This document shows, in pieces, positions 15,909-29,686 of a DNA stretch of 64,000 nucleotides. The position numbers and the translations under genes are program-made. The number at the start of each line of letters is the position of its first letter. Position 1 is the first letter of the stretch. Source of the DNA: an uncultured candidate division Zixibacteria bacterium (GTDB taxonomy: Bacteria; Zixibacteria; MSB-5A5; UBA10806); contig CAWDFP010000006.1 of the NCBI GenBank assembly GCA_963801605.1, forward strand, positions 1,024,001-1,088,000. The letters run 5' to 3'. The notes beneath the pieces were generated by a model. That model searched no databases. It had not been told where the DNA came from and saw only the letters and a program-made list of their open reading frames with translations.

Positions 15909-16536
15909 ATGGCCAAAGACTTAACCGCCCGGCAGACGGGAAATATTCGAATTCATCAAGAATATGATCCGCAGTAAAGGCCGTCCGCCATCCATACGAG
16001 AGATCGGCGAAAGCTTTAAGATTCATTCTACAAACGGTGTTCGCGCTGTGCTGGAGGCTCTGGAACGCAAGGGGTATATCAAACGTGACCGCTACACCTC
16101 GCGCGGCATAGAGCTTCTCAAGGAGGCTCTCGATCAGACCATCTCCGATCGCCTTCGGGAAGTACCCTGGGTAGGCCGGGTGGCCGCCGGTACCCCTATT
16201 TGGGCGGAGCAGAATATCGAGGGCAGCTTTTTGTTGGATCGCGATTTTGTGCCCGGTGAGGAGGTATTCTCGCTCAAGGTGCGCGGCGATTCGATGATCG
16301 ATGCCGGTATTTTCGACGGCGATTATGTGCTGGTCAAACGTCAGGATATGGCCAACGCCGGTGATGTGGTGGTGGCACAAATCGGCGACGAGGCTACGGT
16401 CAAAAAGTTCTTTCCGGAGCGGCTGCGTATTCGTCTGGAGCCTGCCAATTCCGACTATGGTCCGATCGTGGTGGAGAGAAACACACCCGGTTTTGCCATT
16501 GCGGGCAAGGTAATTGGGCTGTTAAGGAAGATGTGA
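15909..16536 (+). CDS. lexA: SOS repressor LexA (indel near 15940)
   Basis: RBS GGAGG. 'MAKDLTARQ.EIFEFI..PPSIREIG' winged HTH, Ala-Gly site 'VAAGTP', catalytic Ser 'GDSM' and Lys 'TVKK'. Confidence 0.95.
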
Positions 16537-16541
16537 TAACC

Positions 16542-16683
16542 GTAGGTCAGGCGCCCTGGCGCCTGACATTGCGTGTCACAATTTATTGTGACCGCAAATA
16601 TTGCCTCAGGATGTGCCCCGATTCATGATCGGAGTATCCTGAGGCATAAAAACAATGTGTTTGGGGCACGACAACCGTACCCC
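16542..16683. repeat. Cluster of four REP-like palindromes between lexA and the next gene
   Basis: gtag-gtcaggcgcc-ct-ggcgcctgac (16542-16567); gtcacaatttattgtgac (16575-16592); tgcctcaggat..atcctgaggca (16602-16646); ggggcacg..cgtacccc (16663-16683). Confidence 0.8.
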
Positions 16684-16704
16684 ATGGAAATAAATATCAT
16701 TCCC

Positions 16705-16953
16705 ATGTACCAGGACATCGAAGAATCAGTTGACGTAATCGCCGTCTTTGAATCGGGACGGCTGCAGCCGATCAAGTTCCGCTGGAAAGGCCGCTCGATC
16801 AAGATTAAGCAGATCACCGGTTCCTGGAAATCGGATGTCGGCGCCCACAAGATACGTTTTTATGCGGTGCTCGATAGTGCCTCCAACTTTTTCCAACTCG
16901 CTTACGATGAGAAGAACACAGCCTGGGTACTCAATAAAATATGGGTGGAGTAA
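16705..16953 (+). CDS. Small beta-rich protein, DUF6504-like
   Basis: 'P.KFRWKGR..I..I...W.....FY......FQLAYD....W.L' pattern. Start at 16705 or 16684; the longer ORF from 16573 runs through repeats. Confidence 0.7.
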   Translation: MYQDIEESVDVIAVFESGRLQPIKFRWKGRSIKIKQITGSWKSDVGAHKIRFYAVLDSASNFFQLAYDEKNTAWVLNKIWVE

Positions 16954-16964
16954 TAGAAAATAGT

Positions 16965-16990
16965 GATGGCACACGAGGACGTGCGCCATC
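16965..16990. repeat. REP-like hairpin with GAGGAC loop upstream of dinB
   Basis: gatggcacac-gaggac-gtgcgccatc, 9 of 10 stem positions pair. Same loop as the hairpins at 30680 and 47849. Confidence 0.7.
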
Positions 16991-16997
16991 CACGGGC

Positions 16998-18191
16998 ATG
17001 TTGGATTGGGGCAACAGCCCGGTCATCATGCATCTCGATATGGATGCTTTCTTCGCCGCAATCGAGCAGACCATCCATCCCAGTCTCAGGGGCAAGCCGG
17101 TAATTGTGGGGGGAGACCCCGATTCGCGCGGCGTGGTCTCCACCTGTTCTTACGAAGCCAGAAATTACGGAGTCCACTCTGCGATGCCGATGAAAGAGGC
17201 ATACAGGCTTTGTCCCGATGCGGTCTATGTCAATACATCTGGCGACAAATACTCCTATATGTCGGCCCAGGTAGTATCGATCATGAGACGATATTCACCG
17301 TCGATTGAACCTGTCTCTATCGATGAAGCTTTCGCTGATATCACCGGTATATACAAACGTTACGGCGGACCTGAACAGGTTGCCAGAGCTATCAAAAAAG
17401 ATATATTAGATGAGATCAATCTAACCTGTTCTATCGGAATCGGACCGAATAGATCAGTAGCCAAGATCGCCTCAGGTTCAAATAAACCGGATGGGTTGGT
17501 GATAATTCCGCCGGCTGATGTGAAACAATTTCTCTGGGTGAGGCCTGTCGATCATCTCTGGGGTGTGGGAAAGAAATCTGCCGAGGCTCTTGGCAGAATC
17601 GGAATCAAAACAATCGGCGATCTGGCGCAGACTCCGGAGAAAACCTTAAAGACGATGTTTGGTATCATGGGGCCGGGCCTGGTGCGTATGGCCAACGGCG
17701 AGGGTGAAACTGATGTCAGAGCCAGCCATATCGAGTACGAAGCAAAATCGATGGGGCATGAGCATACGTTCGATAAAGACACTAACGACCAGGAAAAAGT
17801 ATTAGGTCTTCTTTTGTATCTGTCAGACCGGGTTTCCCGTCGGCTCAGGCAGTCCGGATGTATTGCTCGAACGGTGACCCTGAAAGTTAGAAGATCAGAT
17901 TTCAAACTTCTCACCAGGGCAAAATCCCTCAATGTCTATATCGATACTGAAAAAGATATATTCCGCGCTGCCCGCAAGCTGTTGCTTGACAACCGCTTTC
18001 TCGATGAGCCTATCAGGCTGATTGGAGTCAACGTTTCAAATCTGAAAAATAACGGAGGCGAGACATTTGACGATTACTTAATTGATTACGATCCCCTGAA
18101 GAAACGCAGGCAGCTCGATAAAGTCCTGGATAACCTCAGGGACAAACATGGGGAAGAGTCAATCTTTTTTGCCGCTTCGCAGATATTTTAG
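16998..18191 (+). CDS. dinB: DNA polymerase IV (Y family)
   Basis: 'HLDMDAFFA', 'RGVVSTCSYEAR', 'SIDEA', 'KPDG', 'WGVG'. Confidence 0.95.
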   Translation: MLDWGNSPVIMHLDMDAFFAAIEQTIHPSLRGKPVIVGGDPDSRGVVSTCSYEARNYGVHSAMPMKEAYRLCPDAVYVNTSGDKYSYMSAQVVSIMRRYSPSIEPVSIDEAFADITGIYKRYGGPEQVARAIKKDILDEINLTCSIGIGPNRSVAKIASGSNKPDGLVIIPPADVKQFLWVRPVDHLWGVGKKSAEALGRIGIKTIGDLAQTPEKTLKTMFGIMGPGLVRMANGEGETDVRASHIEYEAKSMGHEHTFDKDTNDQEKVLGLLLYLSDRVSRRLRQSGCIARTVTLKVRRSDFKLLTRAKSLNVYIDTEKDIFRAARKLLLDNRFLDEPIRLIGVNVSNLKNNGGETFDDYLIDYDPLKKRRQLDKVLDNLRDKHGEESIFFAASQIF

Positions 18192-18291: not shown

Positions 18292-19504
18292 ATGTCGGAT
18301 ATTCTGGAACACGTGGGGCAACTTGTGGACCGTTGGCAATTTTCAAACAGAGCTAGAGCACAGAAAAGTTCTATTATCAGAGAGATCCTCAAGGATTCCT
18401 CCAAGCCTGGCGTAATCAACCTCGCAGGTGGACTTCCCGCTCCCGAGCTATTCCCGGTTGAGGCCATCAAGCAAGCCTGCATTCGAGTGCTCGACAAGTA
18501 TGGACCCGATTCTCTCCAGTATTCTCTCACAACAGGTGTGCCGCTTTTAAAGAAATTTTTGGCAGATCGAATCAGCGCCAGCGGCCTGGAGTTTTCTCCC
18601 GATTCTATCCAGATTACTGGGCGGCTCTCAGCAAGGCCTCGATATCGTCGGAAGAGTATTTATCAATCCCGGCTCCGTAGTTCTTACCGAAGAGCCTACT
18701 TATCTGGGAGCGCTTCAAGCATTCTCATTCTACGATGCTAATTTTGTTTCGGTTAAGACCGATGAAAACGGCATTATCCCCTCCGATCTCGAATACAAAA
18801 TCAAGGAGTTTAATCCAGTTTTTGTATACCTGGTGCCGAATTTCCAAAACCCATCAGGGGTTACCCTTTCAGCGGAGCGTCGCGAGGCGGTAATTGCCCT
18901 GGCAAAAAAATATGATGTTCCTATTATTGACGACAACCCCTATGGGGAGCTTCGTTTCTTTGGGCAGCCCGTGCCATCTCTTAAGGCTTTGGGCGGCCAG
19001 CATGTCATCCAGCTCGGGACATTTTCCAAGATCATTTCGCCCGGCCTTCGCATTGCCTGGATTGCCGCCGACAAAGAGTTTATCAGAATGTGCGAACTAA
19101 TGAAACAAGCTTGCGATTTGCACACCACCACATTCTCACAATATGTCGTATATGAGTTTGCCAAGGATGGCGCCTTAGAGGACTATATCGAGGTCCTGAA
19201 AAAGGCTTACAGGCGCCGCCGCGATGTGATGATCGAGACGCTTTCCCGCGAGCTAAAAAATCGGGCCACCTGGTCGGAGCCTGAGGGCGGGCTTTTCCTC
19301 TGGGTTAAGCTGCCTGACGGGATCTCGTCCTCCGAGCTTTTACCCAAAGCCATTAGTTCCGGATTTGCCTACGTGCCCGGTAAATATTTCTATAGTCAAA
19401 AACCTGACGATACGACCTTGCGCCTGAATTTCTGTAATGCCAGCGAGGAAAATATTGTCGAAGGCATAAAGCGTCTGGCCGCCGTGGTCAAGGCAGCAAT
19501 GTAG
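18292..19504 (+). CDS. PLP-dependent class I aminotransferase, LysN/2-aminoadipate transaminase-like (indel near 18620)
   Basis: 'INLAGGLPAPELFP', 'PNFQNPSG', 'IDDNPY', 'GTFSKIISPGLRIAW', 'LRLNF'. Confidence 0.88.
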
Positions 19505-19515
19505 ATATTCGAAAA

Positions 19516-20352
19516 GTGGATATACCTTTTATAAAGATCGAGGGCCTCGGGAACGATTATATCTTTGTCGATGATAGCGTTTTTCGCGGCCGAAAGATGC
19601 GTTTTCCCTCTTTAGCGCGTGCCATTTCCCATAGAAGATTCGGCGTCGGCTCCGATGGATTAATAATCGTAAAAAAAATCGATTCTAAATCAGCTTCCAT
19701 GACAATTTACAATTCAGATGGCTCGCAAGCAGAATTTTGCGGCAATGGACTTCGTGGAACTGCACTTTATATCAAATCTGTTTATAAGGCTAAGGGTAAC
19801 GAGTTTTCCGTTTCCACGAAGTGGAGAGAGTATCGCACGAATATTGTTAAAACCTATGGTAATTCGGCCATGATAAGAGCCTCTTTGGGAGCGCCTTCGT
19901 TCGATTCCAAAGATGTGGGTTTCAATGGCCCCAATTGTCTGGGGGTTGAGGTTACTCCGGCGGGAATTCCACGGCAACTTTACTGCGTCGCTATGCCCAA
20001 TCCTCACGCCGTGATTTTTGTCGATGATTTCGATTTTAGCTGGCAAAATGAAGGCATGATTCTCGAAAAGAGCAAACTCTTCAAAAACGGCATTAATGTC
20101 ATGTTTGCCAGGGTCGATTCGCCAAAGAGGATCTCGCTGATGCCATGGGAACGCGGGTCGGGACCGACCATGGCGTGCGGTTCCGGAGCTGCCGGTGCAA
20201 CTGTGATTTCTAATCTTCTTGAGATGACTAAAGGCCCGGTTACGGTTCAGATGCCGGGTGGGACTCTATTAACCCGTTGGGATATCGCTGAAAATCAGGT
20301 CTACCAGGCCGGACCTGCACGAATAGCATTTTCGGGAACTTATAAAATTTGA
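19516..20352 (+). CDS. dapF: Diaminopimelate epimerase
   Basis: 'GLGNDY', 'EFCGNG', 'NPHAV', 'WERG', 'ACGSG'; both catalytic Cys are present. Confidence 0.93.
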   Translation: MDIPFIKIEGLGNDYIFVDDSVFRGRKMRFPSLARAISHRRFGVGSDGLIIVKKIDSKSASMTIYNSDGSQAEFCGNGLRGTALYIKSVYKAKGNEFSVSTKWREYRTNIVKTYGNSAMIRASLGAPSFDSKDVGFNGPNCLGVEVTPAGIPRQLYCVAMPNPHAVIFVDDFDFSWQNEGMILEKSKLFKNGINVMFARVDSPKRISLMPWERGSGPTMACGSGAAGATVISNLLEMTKGPVTVQMPGGTLLTRWDIAENQVYQAGPARIAFSGTYKI

Positions 20353-22061
20353 AGTCTCTAAAAAACGATATAGCAGAAAAAATCTCGGCCGTTGTCGGAG
20401 TCGATAAGGCCCAGCTAATCGATTTGTTTGAAACCCCGCCATCCGAGGATATGGGCGATCTTGCACTGCCATGTTTCCATTTTTCCAAGATGCTGAGGAA
20501 ATCCCCTTTAGCTGTTGCTATCGATCTGGCAGCCAAAATCCATCCGGACGAACTTTTGGAACGCGCCGAAGCCAAAGGGCCTTATCTCAACTTTTATTAT
20601 CGCCATGATAAAGTTATATCGGATATTCTTGCGGAGATTTCCGAAAAGAAAGAGAAATACGGTCGAGATAATTATGGGGCCGGCAAGACCGTTGTAATCG
20701 ACTATTCGTCTCCAAATATTGCCAAACCATTTGGAATCGGGCATCTGCGATCTACCGTTATTGGCGCGTCACTCAAACGGATTTTCGAACACCGCGGATA
20801 TAAAGTTATCGGCATTAATCATCTCGGTGACTGGGGAACGCAGTTCGGCAAAGTCATCCTGGCATATAAGCTCTGGGGAGATGAAAAGAAACTTGGCATA
20901 AATCCGATCGAGTATCTTTACGATCTGTATGTCAGAATACATCAGGAAGAGGAAAAAGACCTTGCGCTTAAGGAACGAACTCGCGAGGAGTTTAAGAAGC
21001 TCGAATCCGGAGACCCGGAGAATCTTGCTTTATGGAAAAAGTTTTCCGAGCTAAGCCGCCAGGAATTTGACAAAATATATGGCATTTTGGGTATTACGTT
21101 CGAAAGCGTGGCGGGCGAATCGTTTTATAACGATAAAATTGCCTCAACCGCGGAACTTCTCGATAAGAGCGGTCTTCTCTCAGAAAGCCGGGAGGCCACT
21201 ATTGTCGATCTCGAAAAGTATAATCTTCCTCCCCTGCTGATTAAAAAGAGTGATGAGACCACTCTATATGCTACCCGCGATCTGGCCGCGGCTATTTATC
21301 GTCAGAAAACATACAATTTCGATAAAATGCTGTATGTGGTCGGTGTAGCGCAATCTCTTCACTTTAAACAGTTTTTCAAGGTTCTGGAGCTTCTGGGATT
21401 TGATTGGGTAAAAAAATGCCACCATATAAGCTTTGGATGGGTAAAACTTGGCGATGAAATGATGTCGACCCGGAAGGGAAATATCGTTTTTCTGGAAGAT
21501 GTTATTTCAAAGGCAGTGGAGCTGGCCCAAAAAATAATAAAGCAGGGTAGCCCCGATCTTCCCGATCCCGAAAAAACCGCTCGTGACGTGGGAATCGGCG
21601 CGGTGGTATTCACCGATCTTGCTTTCAGGAGAGATACCGATATTTCTTTTGATTGGGATCGAATGCTCGATTTCTCGGGTAACAGCGGACCTTACCTGCA
21701 ATACAGCTACGCTCGCATATCGAGCATATTTAGAAAATATGGCAAGCCGATGCCATTGAATTATTCACCGAACGAACTAACGCTTCCCGAAGAATATTCA
21801 TTGGTTAAAAAACTAAGCTATTATCCCGAGATTATCGCAAAAGCGGCGGAGGAGTGTGAACCATTTTATATTTCAACTTTTCTTCTTGAACTTTGCGGAC
21901 TTTTTAACACATATTATCAAAAATACAAATCCGCGGAGGATAGAGTTCTTTCAAATAATAATGATAAAACCGAAGCTCGACTGGCACTGGTAAATTCAGT
22001 AAGATATGTGCTTGGCTCCGGTTTATCCATTCTGGGCCTCACGGCTCCGGAGATGATGTAA
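20349..22061 (+). CDS. argS: Arginyl-tRNA synthetase
   Basis: 'DYSSPNIAKPFGIGHLRST', 'NHLGDWGTQFG', 'MSTRKG', 'GPYLQYSYARI', C-terminal 'PEMM'. Confidence 0.97.
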   Translation: MKSLKNDIAEKISAVVGVDKAQLIDLFETPPSEDMGDLALPCFHFSKMLRKSPLAVAIDLAAKIHPDELLERAEAKGPYLNFYYRHDKVISDILAEISEKKEKYGRDNYGAGKTVVIDYSSPNIAKPFGIGHLRSTVIGASLKRIFEHRGYKVIGINHLGDWGTQFGKVILAYKLWGDEKKLGINPIEYLYDLYVRIHQEEEKDLALKERTREEFKKLESGDPENLALWKKFSELSRQEFDKIYGILGITFESVAGESFYNDKIASTAELLDKSGLLSESREATIVDLEKYNLPPLLIKKSDETTLYATRDLAAAIYRQKTYNFDKMLYVVGVAQSLHFKQFFKVLELLGFDWVKKCHHISFGWVKLGDEMMSTRKGNIVFLEDVISKAVELAQKIIKQGSPDLPDPEKTARDVGIGAVVFTDLAFRRDTDISFDWDRMLDFSGNSGPYLQYSYARISSIFRKYGKPMPLNYSPNELTLPEEYSLVKKLSYYPEIIAKAAEECEPFYISTFLLELCGLFNTYYQKYKSAEDRVLSNNNDKTEARLALVNSVRYVLGSGLSILGLTAPEMM

Positions 22062-22103: not shown

Positions 22104-23485
22104 ATGGATAAAATTATAAATCCCGTTCGCAAACTTCAGGGAGTTATTAAAGTCCCCGGGGATAACCCAATCTCGCATCGTATCGCTTTTCTTTCGGCGG
22201 TATGCGAGGGGCCGGTTGAGATAACCAACTACTCGTCAGGAATGGAAGCCCAATCCGCCTTAATCTGTCTTTCTCAATTGGGAGTTGAAATTGAGCGCCC
22301 GGAGGGATAAAACCATCATCCACGGCAGGGGCATGCATAATATTAAAAAGCCCGATCAGCCAATCAATGTCGGGACCTCAGTGATTGCCGCACGCATTAT
22401 TTGCGGAATCCTTGCCACCTGCGATTTTGAATCCGAACTTATTTGCGATGATATCATATCTAATTTGCCCATGAGGAGAATAATCGAACCCCTGGAGCAA
22501 ATGGGAGCCAAAATCGAATCCAATAATTATCGCTTTCCTCTTAAGATTAAAGGCGGGAAACTAAAGGGTATCCGGTACGCTATGCCCGTTCCCTCCTCGC
22601 AGGTGAAAGGCGCTCTGCTTATTGCCGGGATGACCGCCGATGGAGTTACCGAAATTATCGAACGCATGCCCAGCCGCGACCATTTGGAGCGCTTGTTGAC
22701 ATACTTTGGAGTTCGTTTGCGCAAGAGCAGAGTCGAACCTAAAGCATCCAACGAAGATCCGCTCGCCAAACGATTCAAAAAGGCAGCGGGAATTGTCTCG
22801 CCCGACATCAAAGGAGATATGATTTCAATCCGCGGCGGGCAAAAGGCAATCCCTAAAGCGGTGATAGTCCCTGGCGATCTATCTGCCGCCTCCTATTTTA
22901 TTATCGCCGGTCTACTTGGTGGATGGCTCAGAAATTCGAGTAGATGATGTCGGCTTAAATCCTACCAGGCTGGGATTTGTCGAAGTTCTTAAAAAGATGA
23001 AAGCCCCCATCACGGTCAAGCAAACCGGTGAATACGGATTCGAACCAGTGGGCAGCATCGAGATAAAATCGGCCAATATCAAAGGGCGACGAATGGTTGG
23101 AGAGCTTATCCCCAGCATTATTGATGAACTTCCTGTAATGGCCATAGTTGCCGCTGCTGCTCAGGGCACATCCGTCATTCGCGATGCCTATGAGCTTCGC
23201 CATCAGAAAACCGATCGCATTAAAACTATCGCCGGTAATCTTCGCAAAATGGGAGTTAAAGTCGGCGAGCTCGAGGACGGCCTGGCAATCGATGGTGGTA
23301 CTGAGCTTGAAGGGGCCGAAATCGAAACTTTCGGCGATCACCGCATTGCCATGTCATTTGCTATTGCGGCGTTAATTGCCAAGGGCCAGTCGGTGATTAA
23401 AGATGCGGAATGCGTCGAGGTCAATTATCCCGGCTTCTGGGACGATTTCGACATGCTTGTCAACGGGGAGCTTCCCAGGGCTTAG
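22104..23485 (+). CDS. AroA (EPSP synthase) homologue with a degenerate PEP site (indels near 22305 and 22920)
   Basis: AroA landmarks 'VPGD..ISHR', 'SSQVKG', 'SRDHLER', 'VPGDLSAA', 'LNPTR', 'IDELP', 'TDRI', 'DHRIAMS', but key residues are substituted (see findings). Confidence 0.85.
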
Positions 23486-23505
23486 CGCTCCCGAGGCATA
23501 ATCTC

Positions 23506-23937
23506 ATCGAAAAGCGGTTTATCCATGCAGCAAGCGAGGGGTTCCGAAGCGGAATCCGCGCTTTCTACAAGCTTTCGACCATTATGATACCGGTATATCT
23601 GGTTGTTGCTCTCCTGAAATTAACTCCATTATTCGATATCTTGAGTAGATTTTTTCAGCCCTTTATGACCTACTTTGGTCTTCCGGGAAACTCGGCTCTA
23701 GCCTATGTCACGGGCACCTTCGTAAATCTATATGCCGCGCTTGCCATAGTTGCAGGAATCGATATAACCGGCCGTCAGGTTACCATTCTGGCAATCATGC
23801 TGGGGATATCGCATTCGCAAATTATGGAAGGAGCCGTTCTGGCCAAGATGAAGGCTCGTCCGGTTATAGTCACCATAGCGCGAGTCGTGTTTTCGCTGCT
23901 CTGCGGGTTCGTCCTTAATTTGGTGATGCCGGAATAA
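23506..23937 (+). CDS. Nucleoside-recognition (Gate) domain membrane protein, SpmA-like; start uncertain
   Basis: 'PFMTYFGLPG..A..TG..VNLYAA..QVTILA..HS..ME'. No canonical start between the aroA-like stop and 23584; GAGG precedes ATC at 23506. Confidence 0.7.
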   Translation: MEKRFIHAASEGFRSGIRAFYKLSTIMIPVYLVVALLKLTPLFDILSRFFQPFMTYFGLPGNSALAYVTGTFVNLYAALAIVAGIDITGRQVTILAIMLGISHSQIMEGAVLAKMKARPVIVTIARVVFSLLCGFVLNLVMPE

Positions 23938-23939
23938 GT

Positions 23940-24378
23940 ATGGATTTTGCCCTCGATACTCTGATGGGACTTGGCAGCCTTCTTTTGAAGGTCTTTCTAA
24001 TTGTGGTTCCTCTCATGGTGCTTCTCGAGGTTTCCCGCGAGTACAAAGTACCTCGATAAGTTGATTCACGGCAGTTACCCTATTACCCGCCGGATGGGAT
24101 TAAAGCGCGATTCAATTTATCCTCTTATCGCCGGAATTATATTTGGAATTTCATACGGCGCCGGAGTCTTAATTGGTGAATCCGATTCAGGGCGTATCAA
24201 GGGCAATCAAATGTTTTTGGTGGCGCTATTTCTTGGAATATGTCATTCTATACTCGAGGATACGCTGTTGTTTGCAGCGCAGGGCGCCAATGGTTTTGTC
24301 ATTCTCGGGGTGCGGATTCCATTGGCCATAATTATTGTATTTTTTGCGTCATTAATACTGCGGGAGAAATCCGATTAG
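23940..24378 (+). CDS. Nucleoside-recognition (Gate) domain membrane protein, SpmB-like (indel near 24045)
   Basis: 'MDFALDTL..VPLMVLLE' joins 'AGIIFGISYGAG..CHSILEDTLLF'. Confidence 0.8.
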
Positions 24379-27188: not shown

Positions 27189-28409
27189 GTGCCCTTGAAA
27201 GCGCCAATCAAGATTATTGGGATAATCGTTTTGCTTCTACCAGCCATATATTTATTGGCATACGCCGGTTGGACCGAGCCGGTGCCGGTTCAAGAGCTTA
27301 ATATGAGCGGCGATGAATTGACCGCCCTATCTTTCAGCAGACGGTCAGATAATGATGTTTTCGGCGCCAAGGTACCGTTACAATGAGCCATTGGAATGGA
27401 ACTTCGTGGGGGCCAAGAGAATACTTGCCCGCGCCAATTAACTATGAAGGTCTACAGCGGCAAGCCGCAATAACACCCGACCTACATTGGATTTACTGGG
27501 TTTCGTGGAGGGCGGGTGGAATGGGGATGTGGGATATCTGGCGAGCGAGTTGGGATGATAGCAGCCATACATGCGGACCGGCTGAATGCCTAGGACCGAA
27601 TGTGAATTCAGTCGGATATAGAATGGAGCATTTGCTTTACATTCGAGCGGCAATCGTATGTATTTCGTAACCGATACCTATCAAAAGAATGGACAATATG
27701 GCTTTGGATCAATGGATATTTGGTACGCCGATTGGGATAGTACGCTCGGAGATTGGGGAGAACCATCTAATCTAGGTCCGCTGATTAATACTACCGATAT
27801 AGAACAATCCCCATATTTATCGGCAAACGATTCTACGCTTATATTTTGTATGCGCCGGTGGCCATAGAGCTTCCAGGCTGGCAAGGGGGTGATGATATTT
27901 ACGTAGCATTTGGTAATGGTTCGGTTTGGGATAGCGTTCAAAATATAGGACCGCCAATTAATTCACCCACTTGGGAATGGGGTCCGACAATAACGCCGGA
28001 CAATCTTAAGCTATATTTTTGTACGCATCGCAATAGGGATCCTAATGCGGATTATGAATTAATGGTATCTACTTGGGAGCCAGAGGGAATAGAGGATGAT
28101 AATATAGAACCCGAGGGATAATACAATTAAGCGTTGATTGTATACCCCAATCCGTTTAACGAACAAGTTGAAATTCGAATAGAAGCCTTAGGTCAGAAAC
28201 GGAAAGCACAGCCGAAATCGCGATTTATGACATAGGTGGGCAGAAAGTGAGGGAGTATGTCATAGCACTATAAGAGCGATGGCCGTGGAAGAGCAACATG
28301 GGACAGCAAGAATCGACAGGGCCAAAAGGTAGGAACCGGAAATTACATACTTACAGCTCGTATACCGGGCGGGCAAAAGACACAAAAAATAGTTACCCTG
28401 CTTAAATAA
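27189..28409 (+). CDS. Secreted PD40/WD40-like beta-propeller protein with FlgD/T9SS-like C-terminus, copy 1 (several indels)
   Basis: Fragments 27189-27386, 27383-27670, 27658-27867 and 27846-28121 are colinear with copy 2. 'YPNPFN' near 28141; ends '..VTLLK*' at 28409. Confidence 0.8.
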
Positions 28410-28497
28410 TGCATTTTTTATTGACAACTTTATCTGTGTATATTTGGAATAACGATGTATCAATATTAATCCGGTCGCTTTTAGGAAAATCAATAAT

Positions 28498-29686
28498 ATG
28501 AAACGAATTCTTCTGACAATTATTTTGGCTCCATTGTTGAGTCTTTTGGCCTCCCCCGCCTTTGCCGGTTGGACAGAGCCGGTGCCGGTTCAAGAGCTAA
28601 ATATGAGCGGCGATGAACTATTACCGAATCTTTCTGCAGACGGTCAAATTATGATGTTTTCTGCTCAAGGTACGGTTACAATGAGCCATTGGAATGGAAC
28701 TTCATGGGGGCCGAGAGAATATTTGCCATCGCCAATTAATTATATCGGCTTACAAGATGAGGCCGCAATTACCCCGGATAAGCGTTGGATATATTGGGTT
28801 TCCTGGCGTGAGGGCGGAATAGGAATGTGGGATATCTGGCGGGCAAGTTGGGATGATAGCAGCCATACTTGCGGGCCAGCGGAGTGTTTGGGACCTAATA
28901 TCAATTCATCAGATATTGAGTGGGGATTATGTTTTTCCTCGGACGGCGAACGCATATTTTTTGTCACCGATACGCGTAACAAAAATGGGCAATATGGTTT
29001 TGGATCAATGGATATTTGGTATTCCAACTGGGATACAGTAATTAATGATTGGGGCGAGGCGTATAATTTGGGACCACTTATTAATACAACCGATACGGAA
29101 GAAACCCCGTATATTTCTGCAACAGGAGATACTCTTTATTTTTCATGCGCTGGGGGTCATCATTTGCCCGGCTGGCAAGGGGGATACGATATATATATAG
29201 CGGTCGCGAGTAATAATGAATGGATATATGCCGAAAATATCTTGCCTCCAATTAATTCGCAAACCTGGGATTTCGGTCCGACAATAACTCCCAATGGACT
29301 ATATTTATATTTTACTTCGCCTCGGGAAAGAAATCCAAATTTTGATTATGAATTGATGGTGTCCTATTGGGAACCTGATGGTATAGATGACGATAAAGAA
29401 CCGAGAGACAATTCAATTAGGGTAGAATGTTATCCTAATCCGTTTAACGAACAGATAGAAATACAGGCTTATTCTACTGGACGAAAGCACTGCCGAAATT
29501 TCTATTTATGACATAAATGGCCAGAAAGTGAGGGAATATGGTCTAAGTATCAGTAATGGCTATGGAAGGACAACATGGGATAGTAAAAATCAACAGGGCC
29601 AAAAGGTAGCAACGGGGAATTATATAGTAAGGGCTGATTTCCCAGATGGCAAAGAGATTAGAAAATTAATTACTTTGTTGAAATAA
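28498..29686 (+). CDS. Secreted PD40/WD40-like beta-propeller protein with FlgD/T9SS-like C-terminus, copy 2 (indel near 29485)
   Basis: Signal peptide 'MKRILL..AFA', repeats 'NLGPLINT..P.IS..G..LYF', 'YPNPFN'; ends '..ITLLK*'. Confidence 0.85.

Follow-up and report, generated by a model that had tools for sequence, protein, structure and literature searches.

An AroA-derived protein with a degenerate active site, retained under selection in Zixibacteria that mostly lack the shikimate pathway

EPSP synthase (AroA), the target of glyphosate, is among the best-studied of enzymes and is treated as single-purpose. The window analysed here, a stretch of 64,000 nucleotides from an uncultured Zixibacteria bacterium, includes an aroA-derived gene, designated aroA*, in which much of the active site is replaced. 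Such a locus raises the question of whether the product can still be an EPSP synthase and, if not, why the gene has been kept. A first-pass annotation had read it as an AroA homologue with a dismantled PEP site, either a pseudoenzyme or the carrier of a new activity.

The gene and its altered active site

In the assembly the gene is broken into three frames (Table 1), for each of which aroA models were the best match in a profile search; intact orthologues in relatives are 454–460 aa long. The split is due to two single extra bases relative to a genome of the same genus (G001). The pieces are 81–97% identical to G001, with dN of 0.02–0.13, synonymous sites near saturation and no internal stop on the read-through path, and each of the 13 genomes of the same family has an open-frame orthologue in which the same residues are lost, one of them truncated at the end of its contig. 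Ribosomal protein S1 of the source genome (G000:C6:1867220-1868931) has two frameshifts and two isocitrate/isopropylmalate dehydrogenase homologues are split too, which marks the assembly as indel-prone; frameshifts affected 7 of 40 conserved loci, at eight events per 16,205 codons, and rpoC was intact. One DNA sequencing run (0.06 share) provided 13 contigs, all less than 95% alike. It is unlikely that the strain itself carries a genuine lesion.

Table 1. Features of the aroA* locus, given as positions in the window
Feature	Position	Strand	Remark
aroA-derived gene (aroA*), ~459 codons	22104..23485	+	three frames here: 22104-22303, 22305-22914, 22916-23485
Extra base in G run vs G001, first frameshift	22304 (about)	+	probably assembly error
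Extra base vs G001, second frameshift	22915 (about)	+	probably assembly error
N-P replacing K22-S23	22164..22169	+	alignment to E. coli K-12 AroA
GTSVI replacing GNAGT (N94T, G96V, T97I)	22372..22386	+	alignment to E. coli K-12 AroA
L replacing R124	22465..22467	+	alignment to E. coli K-12 AroA
27-residue insertion vs E. coli	about 22729..22812	+	core D-P-L-A-K-R-F-K-K at 22756-22782, predicted helix
K-K closing C-terminal-domain helix (296-297, G002 numbering)	22991..22996	+	strongest covariation partner of the insertion helix
K-G-R-R strand motif	23081..23092	+	basic in degenerate copies, not conserved so in insertion-less canonical AroA
T-S-V-I-R strand	23168..23182	+	Arg in 90% of degenerate copies vs 42% of insertion-less canonical
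Q-K-T-D-R replacing K340-E341-T-D-R344; no catalytic Glu	23204..23218 (K340Q/E341K 23204-23209)	+	
K-V-G-E-L-E-D-G hairpin	23258..23281	+	conserved among degenerate copies
argS (arginine-tRNA ligase)	20349..22061	+	upstream neighbour of aroA*
Two small Gate (nucleoside recognition) membrane genes	23410..24378	+	frameshifted in this assembly; ancestral aromatic operon remnants

Alignment to E. coli K-12 AroA bears out the substitutions that had been noted by eye (K22N/S23P, G96V/T97I, R124L and K340Q/E341K), and N94 is also altered, to T. The residues named as retained are indeed so (R27, R100, SSQ with Q171, D313, R344 and D384-H385-R386), and the charged insertion, put at about 25 aa, is present with 27 residues. 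The description of a dismantled PEP site can be refined: S23 and K340 contact the shikimate substrate and not PEP, going by PMC10305266, which lists Lys22, Ser23, Arg27, Asp313 and Lys340 as shikimate-ligand contacts, so that both halves of the site are touched. PMC12256929 describes Glu341 and Asp313 as the acid/base pair and Lys22 as crucial.

In 51 full-length close homologues (65–95% identity), K22, R124, K340 and E341 are non-canonical without exception, and since the same positions are invariant in 37–38 of 37–38 canonical homologues, chance can be excluded. Among the 51, 142 of 457 columns are invariant. Positions 22, 94, 96 and 97 vary freely; R27, R100, Q340, K341, R344 and D384 are invariant; D313 is N in nine, H385 is variable and R386 is retained in 37.

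The two-domain EPSPS fold, in which the S3P ligands are placed on two facing repeats, is indicated by family homology (an intact orthologue scores 339 bits on TIGR01356, against a cut-off of 287) and by a predicted (AF2) model of the orthologue from G002, with pLDDT 92 and a TM-score of 0.90 to Coxiella AroA. A homodimer prediction for this orthologue scored 0.00 in two runs, which is evidence neither way. Identity as MurA was rejected: the pieces reach 21–40 bits on MurA models against 123–172 on aroA, and a canonical MurA is encoded elsewhere in the genome. When held against the requirements of EPSP synthase catalysis, the protein lacks Glu341, Lys22, Arg124, Lys340 and the Gly96/Thr97 contacts. 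It combines lost catalytic residues with a retained predicted fold and, as described below, purifying selection, the marks of a pseudoenzyme, and aroA* is predicted to specify an AroA homologue that works like one and is catalytically dead.

Selection, pathway loss and operon history

In three unsaturated pairs, all from one genus, the dN/dS of aroA* is 0.096, 0.076 and 0.077, against 0.115, 0.101 and 0.082 for argS, and its protein is more conserved than ArgS in eight of eight same-family pairs. Between distant lineages the order is reversed, with 22–39% identity for the aroA* protein against 48–50% for ArgS (three pairs). The alignment of orthologues proposed in the first-pass annotation gives substitutions common to all 13 same-family genomes under strong purifying selection (dN/dS 0.08–0.10), and the recent decay against which its reading had been staked is not seen, close relatives sharing the non-canonical residues.

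A second canonical aroA, another proposed check, is absent from the source genome, where the sole other PF00275 match is the canonical MurA. Neither aroB, aroC, aroE nor aroK was found in this 87% complete genome, and tblastn detected no aroB, aroE, aroK, aroQ, trpA/B/C/F, tyrA or chorismate mutase. Shikimate kinase gave no match there, and weak matches (24–25 bits) in two of five genomes. A weak DAHP-synthase-like match (C6:383627-384361) was rejected, its motifs being those of KdsA. Because the source genome is only 87% complete, the missing-pathway argument is carried by its relatives: aroC and aroE were not found in 11 of 13 genomes of the same family or in 10 of 10 of the same order. Across 41 genomes, the two genes occur together in 13, exactly those with a fully canonical AroA (aroB is in the same 13, plus one weaker match). 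In seven of the 13 the native AroA bears the insertion and is encoded in an aro operon; the other six (G006, G007, G026, G028, G035, G037) use a canonical aroA that lacks the insertion and carry the native gene besides, as a second, degenerate copy.

The native gene is retained by 26 of the 28 aroC-less genomes of this first set. In a sample of the phylum aroC was found in 108 of 151 genomes, and in a second set of 27 without it (21 identified by elimination, with family totals that agree, and one contig-split copy unscored), 13 have a degenerate copy (11/11 in family f16, 2/2 in f19) and 14 only weak matches, read as MurA. Altogether, 39 of 55 aroC-less Zixibacteria genomes retain the gene and 16 have no detectable copy, so its role is dispensable in some lineages. 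By family, f1–f5, f7, f16, f17 and f19 retain it, and f8, f12, f15 and f18 lack it. In five of five genomes checked from gene-less lineages argS stands without aroA*, and in G067 it runs directly into two Gate genes. That the other pathway genes are missing as well lends further support to a purpose other than EPSP synthesis. Retention for such a purpose, as the annotation had supposed, is thus supported by selection and the missing pathway, but none of its three suggestions (sensing, regulation or another chemistry) is singled out. The protein is very probably not an EPSP synthase and is kept for another job.

Some genomes also carry dehydroquinate-synthase-like extras that fall below the aroB cut-off (G010:C128:5922-6839, G007:C253:7513-8520). 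The first of these genomes lacks aroC and aroE, and its gene may specify a sugar-phosphate cyclase of another pathway.

The canonical operon of G031 reads trpB-trpA-argS-aroF-aroA-aroE-gate-gate-aroK-aroB-aroQ (labelled by blast to other loci). Judged by gene order, the argS-aroA*-gate-gate run of the window is the same operon minus the other aromatic genes, aroA* being the aroA native to the phylum. Of the 36 degenerate Zixibacteria loci that were inspected, 33 have argS directly upstream, and the remaining three end before its position. Among the first 40 relatives, all seven native AroAs with a canonical site have an insertion at the same place, and it is therefore no mark of a dead copy; as active relatives carry it, it predates the decay. 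Of 15 site residues, families f6, f9, f10, f11, f13 and f14 retain all 15, f2 retains 11–14, f3 and f4 9–10, f1 5–9, and f5, f7, f16, f17 and f19 0–5. Quick trees join the f17 copy to canonical f10, set f16 apart and unite f1–f4 in a clade. A single clade of the 11 degenerate rows was rejected (p-AU 0.0115), in a test on a quick LG+G4 tree of 29 rows that left out f5, f7 and f19, the three longest-branch families. Decay has probably occurred more than once, from enzymes already bearing the insertion.

Several other features of the window can be recorded. A PLP aminotransferase gene upstream of dapF (18292-19504) is split by a frameshift here and is intact, at about 405 aa, in relatives. DapF itself (19516-20352) evolves faster than its neighbours within the family (dN/dS 0.13–0.27), with an N-terminal motif that varies among relatives; both catalytic Cys motifs are present in the window copy. 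Positions 15964-18191 hold genes that are lexA-like and dinB-like by their motifs, with a small ORF, a trio that lies upstream of the aminotransferase-dapF-argS-aroA* run in several genomes of the same family. A tandem pair of paralogous secreted proteins, their repeats nearly identical, is encoded at 27383-29511, the first of them in pieces in this assembly. A scan for promoters and terminators did no better than chance (12 sites where 10.0 were expected, and 10 where 8.0 were).

A conserved surface and a wider family

Conservation was compared between 84 degenerate copies, with rows of the same family cut to three, and 71 insertion-less canonical AroAs. Among the former, the insertion core has D in 77%, E in 69% and L in 75%, a basic residue at 222 in 94% and at R223 in 99%; outside the insertion, 296/297 are basic in 81%, 328 and 329 in 86% each, and R359 is found in 90–93%; G387 is kept in 92%, an acidic residue at 391 in 98% and G392 in 100%. 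These figures are partly circular, since about 58 of the 84 copies were gathered with a profile of four insertion-bearing dead copies. In the same copies the active site is poorly kept (K22 basic in 32%, R27 in 13%, E341 in 19%), and positions 328, 329, 359 and 387 are not conserved likewise in the 71 insertion-less canonical proteins.

The insertion, modelled with low confidence (pLDDT 63–72), has a predicted helix at 219–227 of the G002 orthologue (pLDDT about 65–70), and predicted secondary structure would place the conserved strands in one sheet of the C-terminal domain, a sheet that faces outward in the EPSPS fold. By mutual information over 208 insertion-bearing rows, the helix has its partners mainly at 297, 327, 355, 386 and 388; the effective depth is about 90. 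Leaving out f1 does not remove the signal, but restricting the rows to a single insertion type weakens it, so that it may be phylogenetic.

The profile built from four very degenerate insertion-bearing copies returned 2,510 representatives. Among the best 150, which were examined, 129 are full length: a long insertion is present in 58 degenerate and six canonical copies and absent from 58 canonical and five degenerate ones, and two copies are intermediate. One cluster of canonical insertion-bearing AroA (P0147) belongs to Latescibacterota, the only taxon among ten clusters looked up. A scan of genome contigs found one true orthologue among 42 loci. In metagenomes, 13 of 80 loci hold a copy that lacks all four of the canonical motifs examined. 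This distant dead family is flanked by tyrA before and NAD kinase after in the eight of these 13 loci that were annotated, and one such protein has a predicted EPSPS fold (pLDDT 92, TM 0.80) with a helix in the insertion. Co-loss with NAD kinase was considered and rejected, as NAD kinase is present in five of five genomes lacking aroA*.

An insertion-bearing dead AroA family can be defined from an insertion core of D/E-x-L-x-basic-basic together with G-R-R/K, x-I-R and G-E-x-E-D-G motifs. The window protein fits, with D-P-L-A-K-R, K-G-R-R, V-I-R and G-E-L-E-D-G, and its insertion core matches the family motif D-E-L-x-R-R-L-x-R; in f16 the core differs (D-P-x-D-P-R-K/R-K). P0186, P0191, P0204 and P0214 are degenerate AroA copies in which a short basic insertion (R-R-x/K) replaces the helix and a K-V/I-G-E/Q-F hairpin is retained. 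In f16 an ORF of about 104 residues, with no Pfam match, lies directly upstream of argS (L145:2504-2815; also L142 and L143).

Possible function and comparison with known systems

The reading that we favour, with a probability of about 0.55 for the mechanism as a whole, is a non-enzymatic binding role inherited from a moonlighting ancestor. The inserted helix (218–226, G002) would lie across the exposed C-terminal sheet (297, 327–329, 355–359 and 386–391), clamping the two domains, and an arginine-rich face could be presented to a macromolecular partner, either RNA or an acidic protein. Where the pathway was lost or replaced, only the second job would have remained under selection, and the active site would have decayed, more than once. 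A non-catalytic role is favoured over new chemistry by the loss of the pocket altogether across the wider family. More tentatively, and at rather less than even odds, it could be speculated that this is an ancient second function of AroA in Zixibacteria and several other phyla, in which the protein, its helix clamped on the outer sheet, binds RNA or a core cellular machine, that it outlasts both catalysis and pathway, and that it explains the recurrent dead EPSP synthases of distant bacteria.

Two observations speak against a purely surface role, the cleft residues held invariant in the 51 close homologues and the 11–14 canonical residues kept by the pathway-less sister family f2. They lead to the main rival, itself unlikely, in which the cleft has been remodelled within the order, as a sensor of an anionic metabolite or for a different chemistry, through R27, R100, Q171, K341, R344 and D384. 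It is the main rival because the order holds several cleft residues fixed: those named are invariant or nearly so, Q340-K341 forms a fixed new pair, and K22, R27, D313, K340, E341, R344 and DHR are all retained by 10 of 10 f2 genomes, in which aroB/C/E were not found. The predicted model is also nearer to closed, liganded structures than to open ones (rmsd 1.6–2.6 against 3.8–5.1). Set against it are the variability already described at D313, H385 and R386, and the copies retained in f16, f17 and outside the phylum with only 0–4 of 15 site residues; R100 and D384, moreover, may be kept for domain closure. One specific chemistry, the synthesis of a futalosine precursor, was rejected, since no gene of the MqnA/MqnD family was found in any of the 28 aroC-less genomes; PF02621 occurs in three of the 41 (G027, G032, G036), all with the shikimate pathway.

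The position of argS directly upstream in 33 of the 36 loci, together with the basic surface, could suggest a protein that assists arginyl-tRNA synthetase or acts on the transcript encoding it. This is improbable, as canonical lineages (G030, G031, G039, G040, G065) already have argS in the ancestral aromatic operon, so that the adjacency is inherited, and both the tyrA and NAD kinase neighbours of the distant dead family and the gene-less lineages with argS alone argue against it. A genuine pseudogene, with real frameshifts in the strain, or a family in simple decay is a shade less probable again: two frameshifts in 1.4 kb exceed the rough genome rate, but conserved loci of the assembly, S1 included, are frameshifted as well, and the low dN and open frames of relatives point the other way. 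There is very little room for slow EPSP synthesis that persists through a shifted set of catalytic residues. Intact orthologues do pass the TIGR01356 cut-off, databases label them EPSP synthase, and D313, R344 and DHR are present in the window, but E341 and K22 are gone, neither a source of S3P nor a chorismate synthase was found, and where the pathway was regained a separate canonical aroA came with it. Least credible of all is a passenger, a translated spacer in the argS operon. Its fixed position and the clean deletion tolerated in some lineages (G067) would suit such a role, but the idea is largely refuted by the low dN/dS and by a within-family identity above that of ArgS, both of which require selection on the protein sequence.

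Selection has here retained an EPSPS homologue after its pathway was gone, and living lineages that share the insertion cover every stage between a fully canonical and a fully degenerate site, a natural series for the search for a hidden second function and for the study of pseudoenzyme origins. There is also a practical consequence: as aroA* proteins score above the curated aroA cut-off and bear the EPSP synthase label in databases, metabolic reconstructions and surveys of glyphosate sensitivity would miscount them.

Among known systems, the closest in sequence and structure are the class II EPSPS (AroA, EC 2.5.1.19). The best sequence match is the Bacillus halodurans enzyme (3RMT, E 2.9e-103), and the model resembles Coxiella burnetii AroA (3SLH, also 3TR1; TM 0.90, with 39% identity to 3SLH). 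With these enzymes, including that of Agrobacterium CP4 (2GG6), aroA* shares the class II-type motifs RxHxE and NPTR and descent from a canonical operon aroA; it differs in the replacement of K22, S23, N94, G96, T97, R124, K340 and E341, in its 27-residue helical insertion and in the absence of pathway genes. The canonical insertion-bearing AroAs of Zixibacteria (G027, G030–G032, G036, G039, G040, G065) and of the Latescibacterota cluster P0147 have the same insertion site, similar sheet motifs and argS in the operon, but they keep all 15 of the canonical residues and their aro operon is complete; no experimental study of them was found in the literature search. Rcl1, the non-cyclising relative of RNA 3'-phosphate cyclase, belongs to the same fold superfamily and may be a precedent for the fold as a binding platform, but is eukaryotic and of the Rtc branch.

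The search, which covered literature other than subscription journals and supplements, returned no paper on the insertion-bearing dead AroA family. The nearest published case (PMC1173090) is the truncated EPSPS domain of Pseudomonas syringae, AroF fused to TyrA, the function of which was discarded after a second gene arrived; Song et al. 2005 raise the thought that this disrupted remnant might become regulatory. The P. syringae domain has a 200-residue deletion and is a fusion in an organism where the pathway is present, whereas aroA* is stand-alone, full length and lineage-wide, in genomes that are mostly pathway-less.
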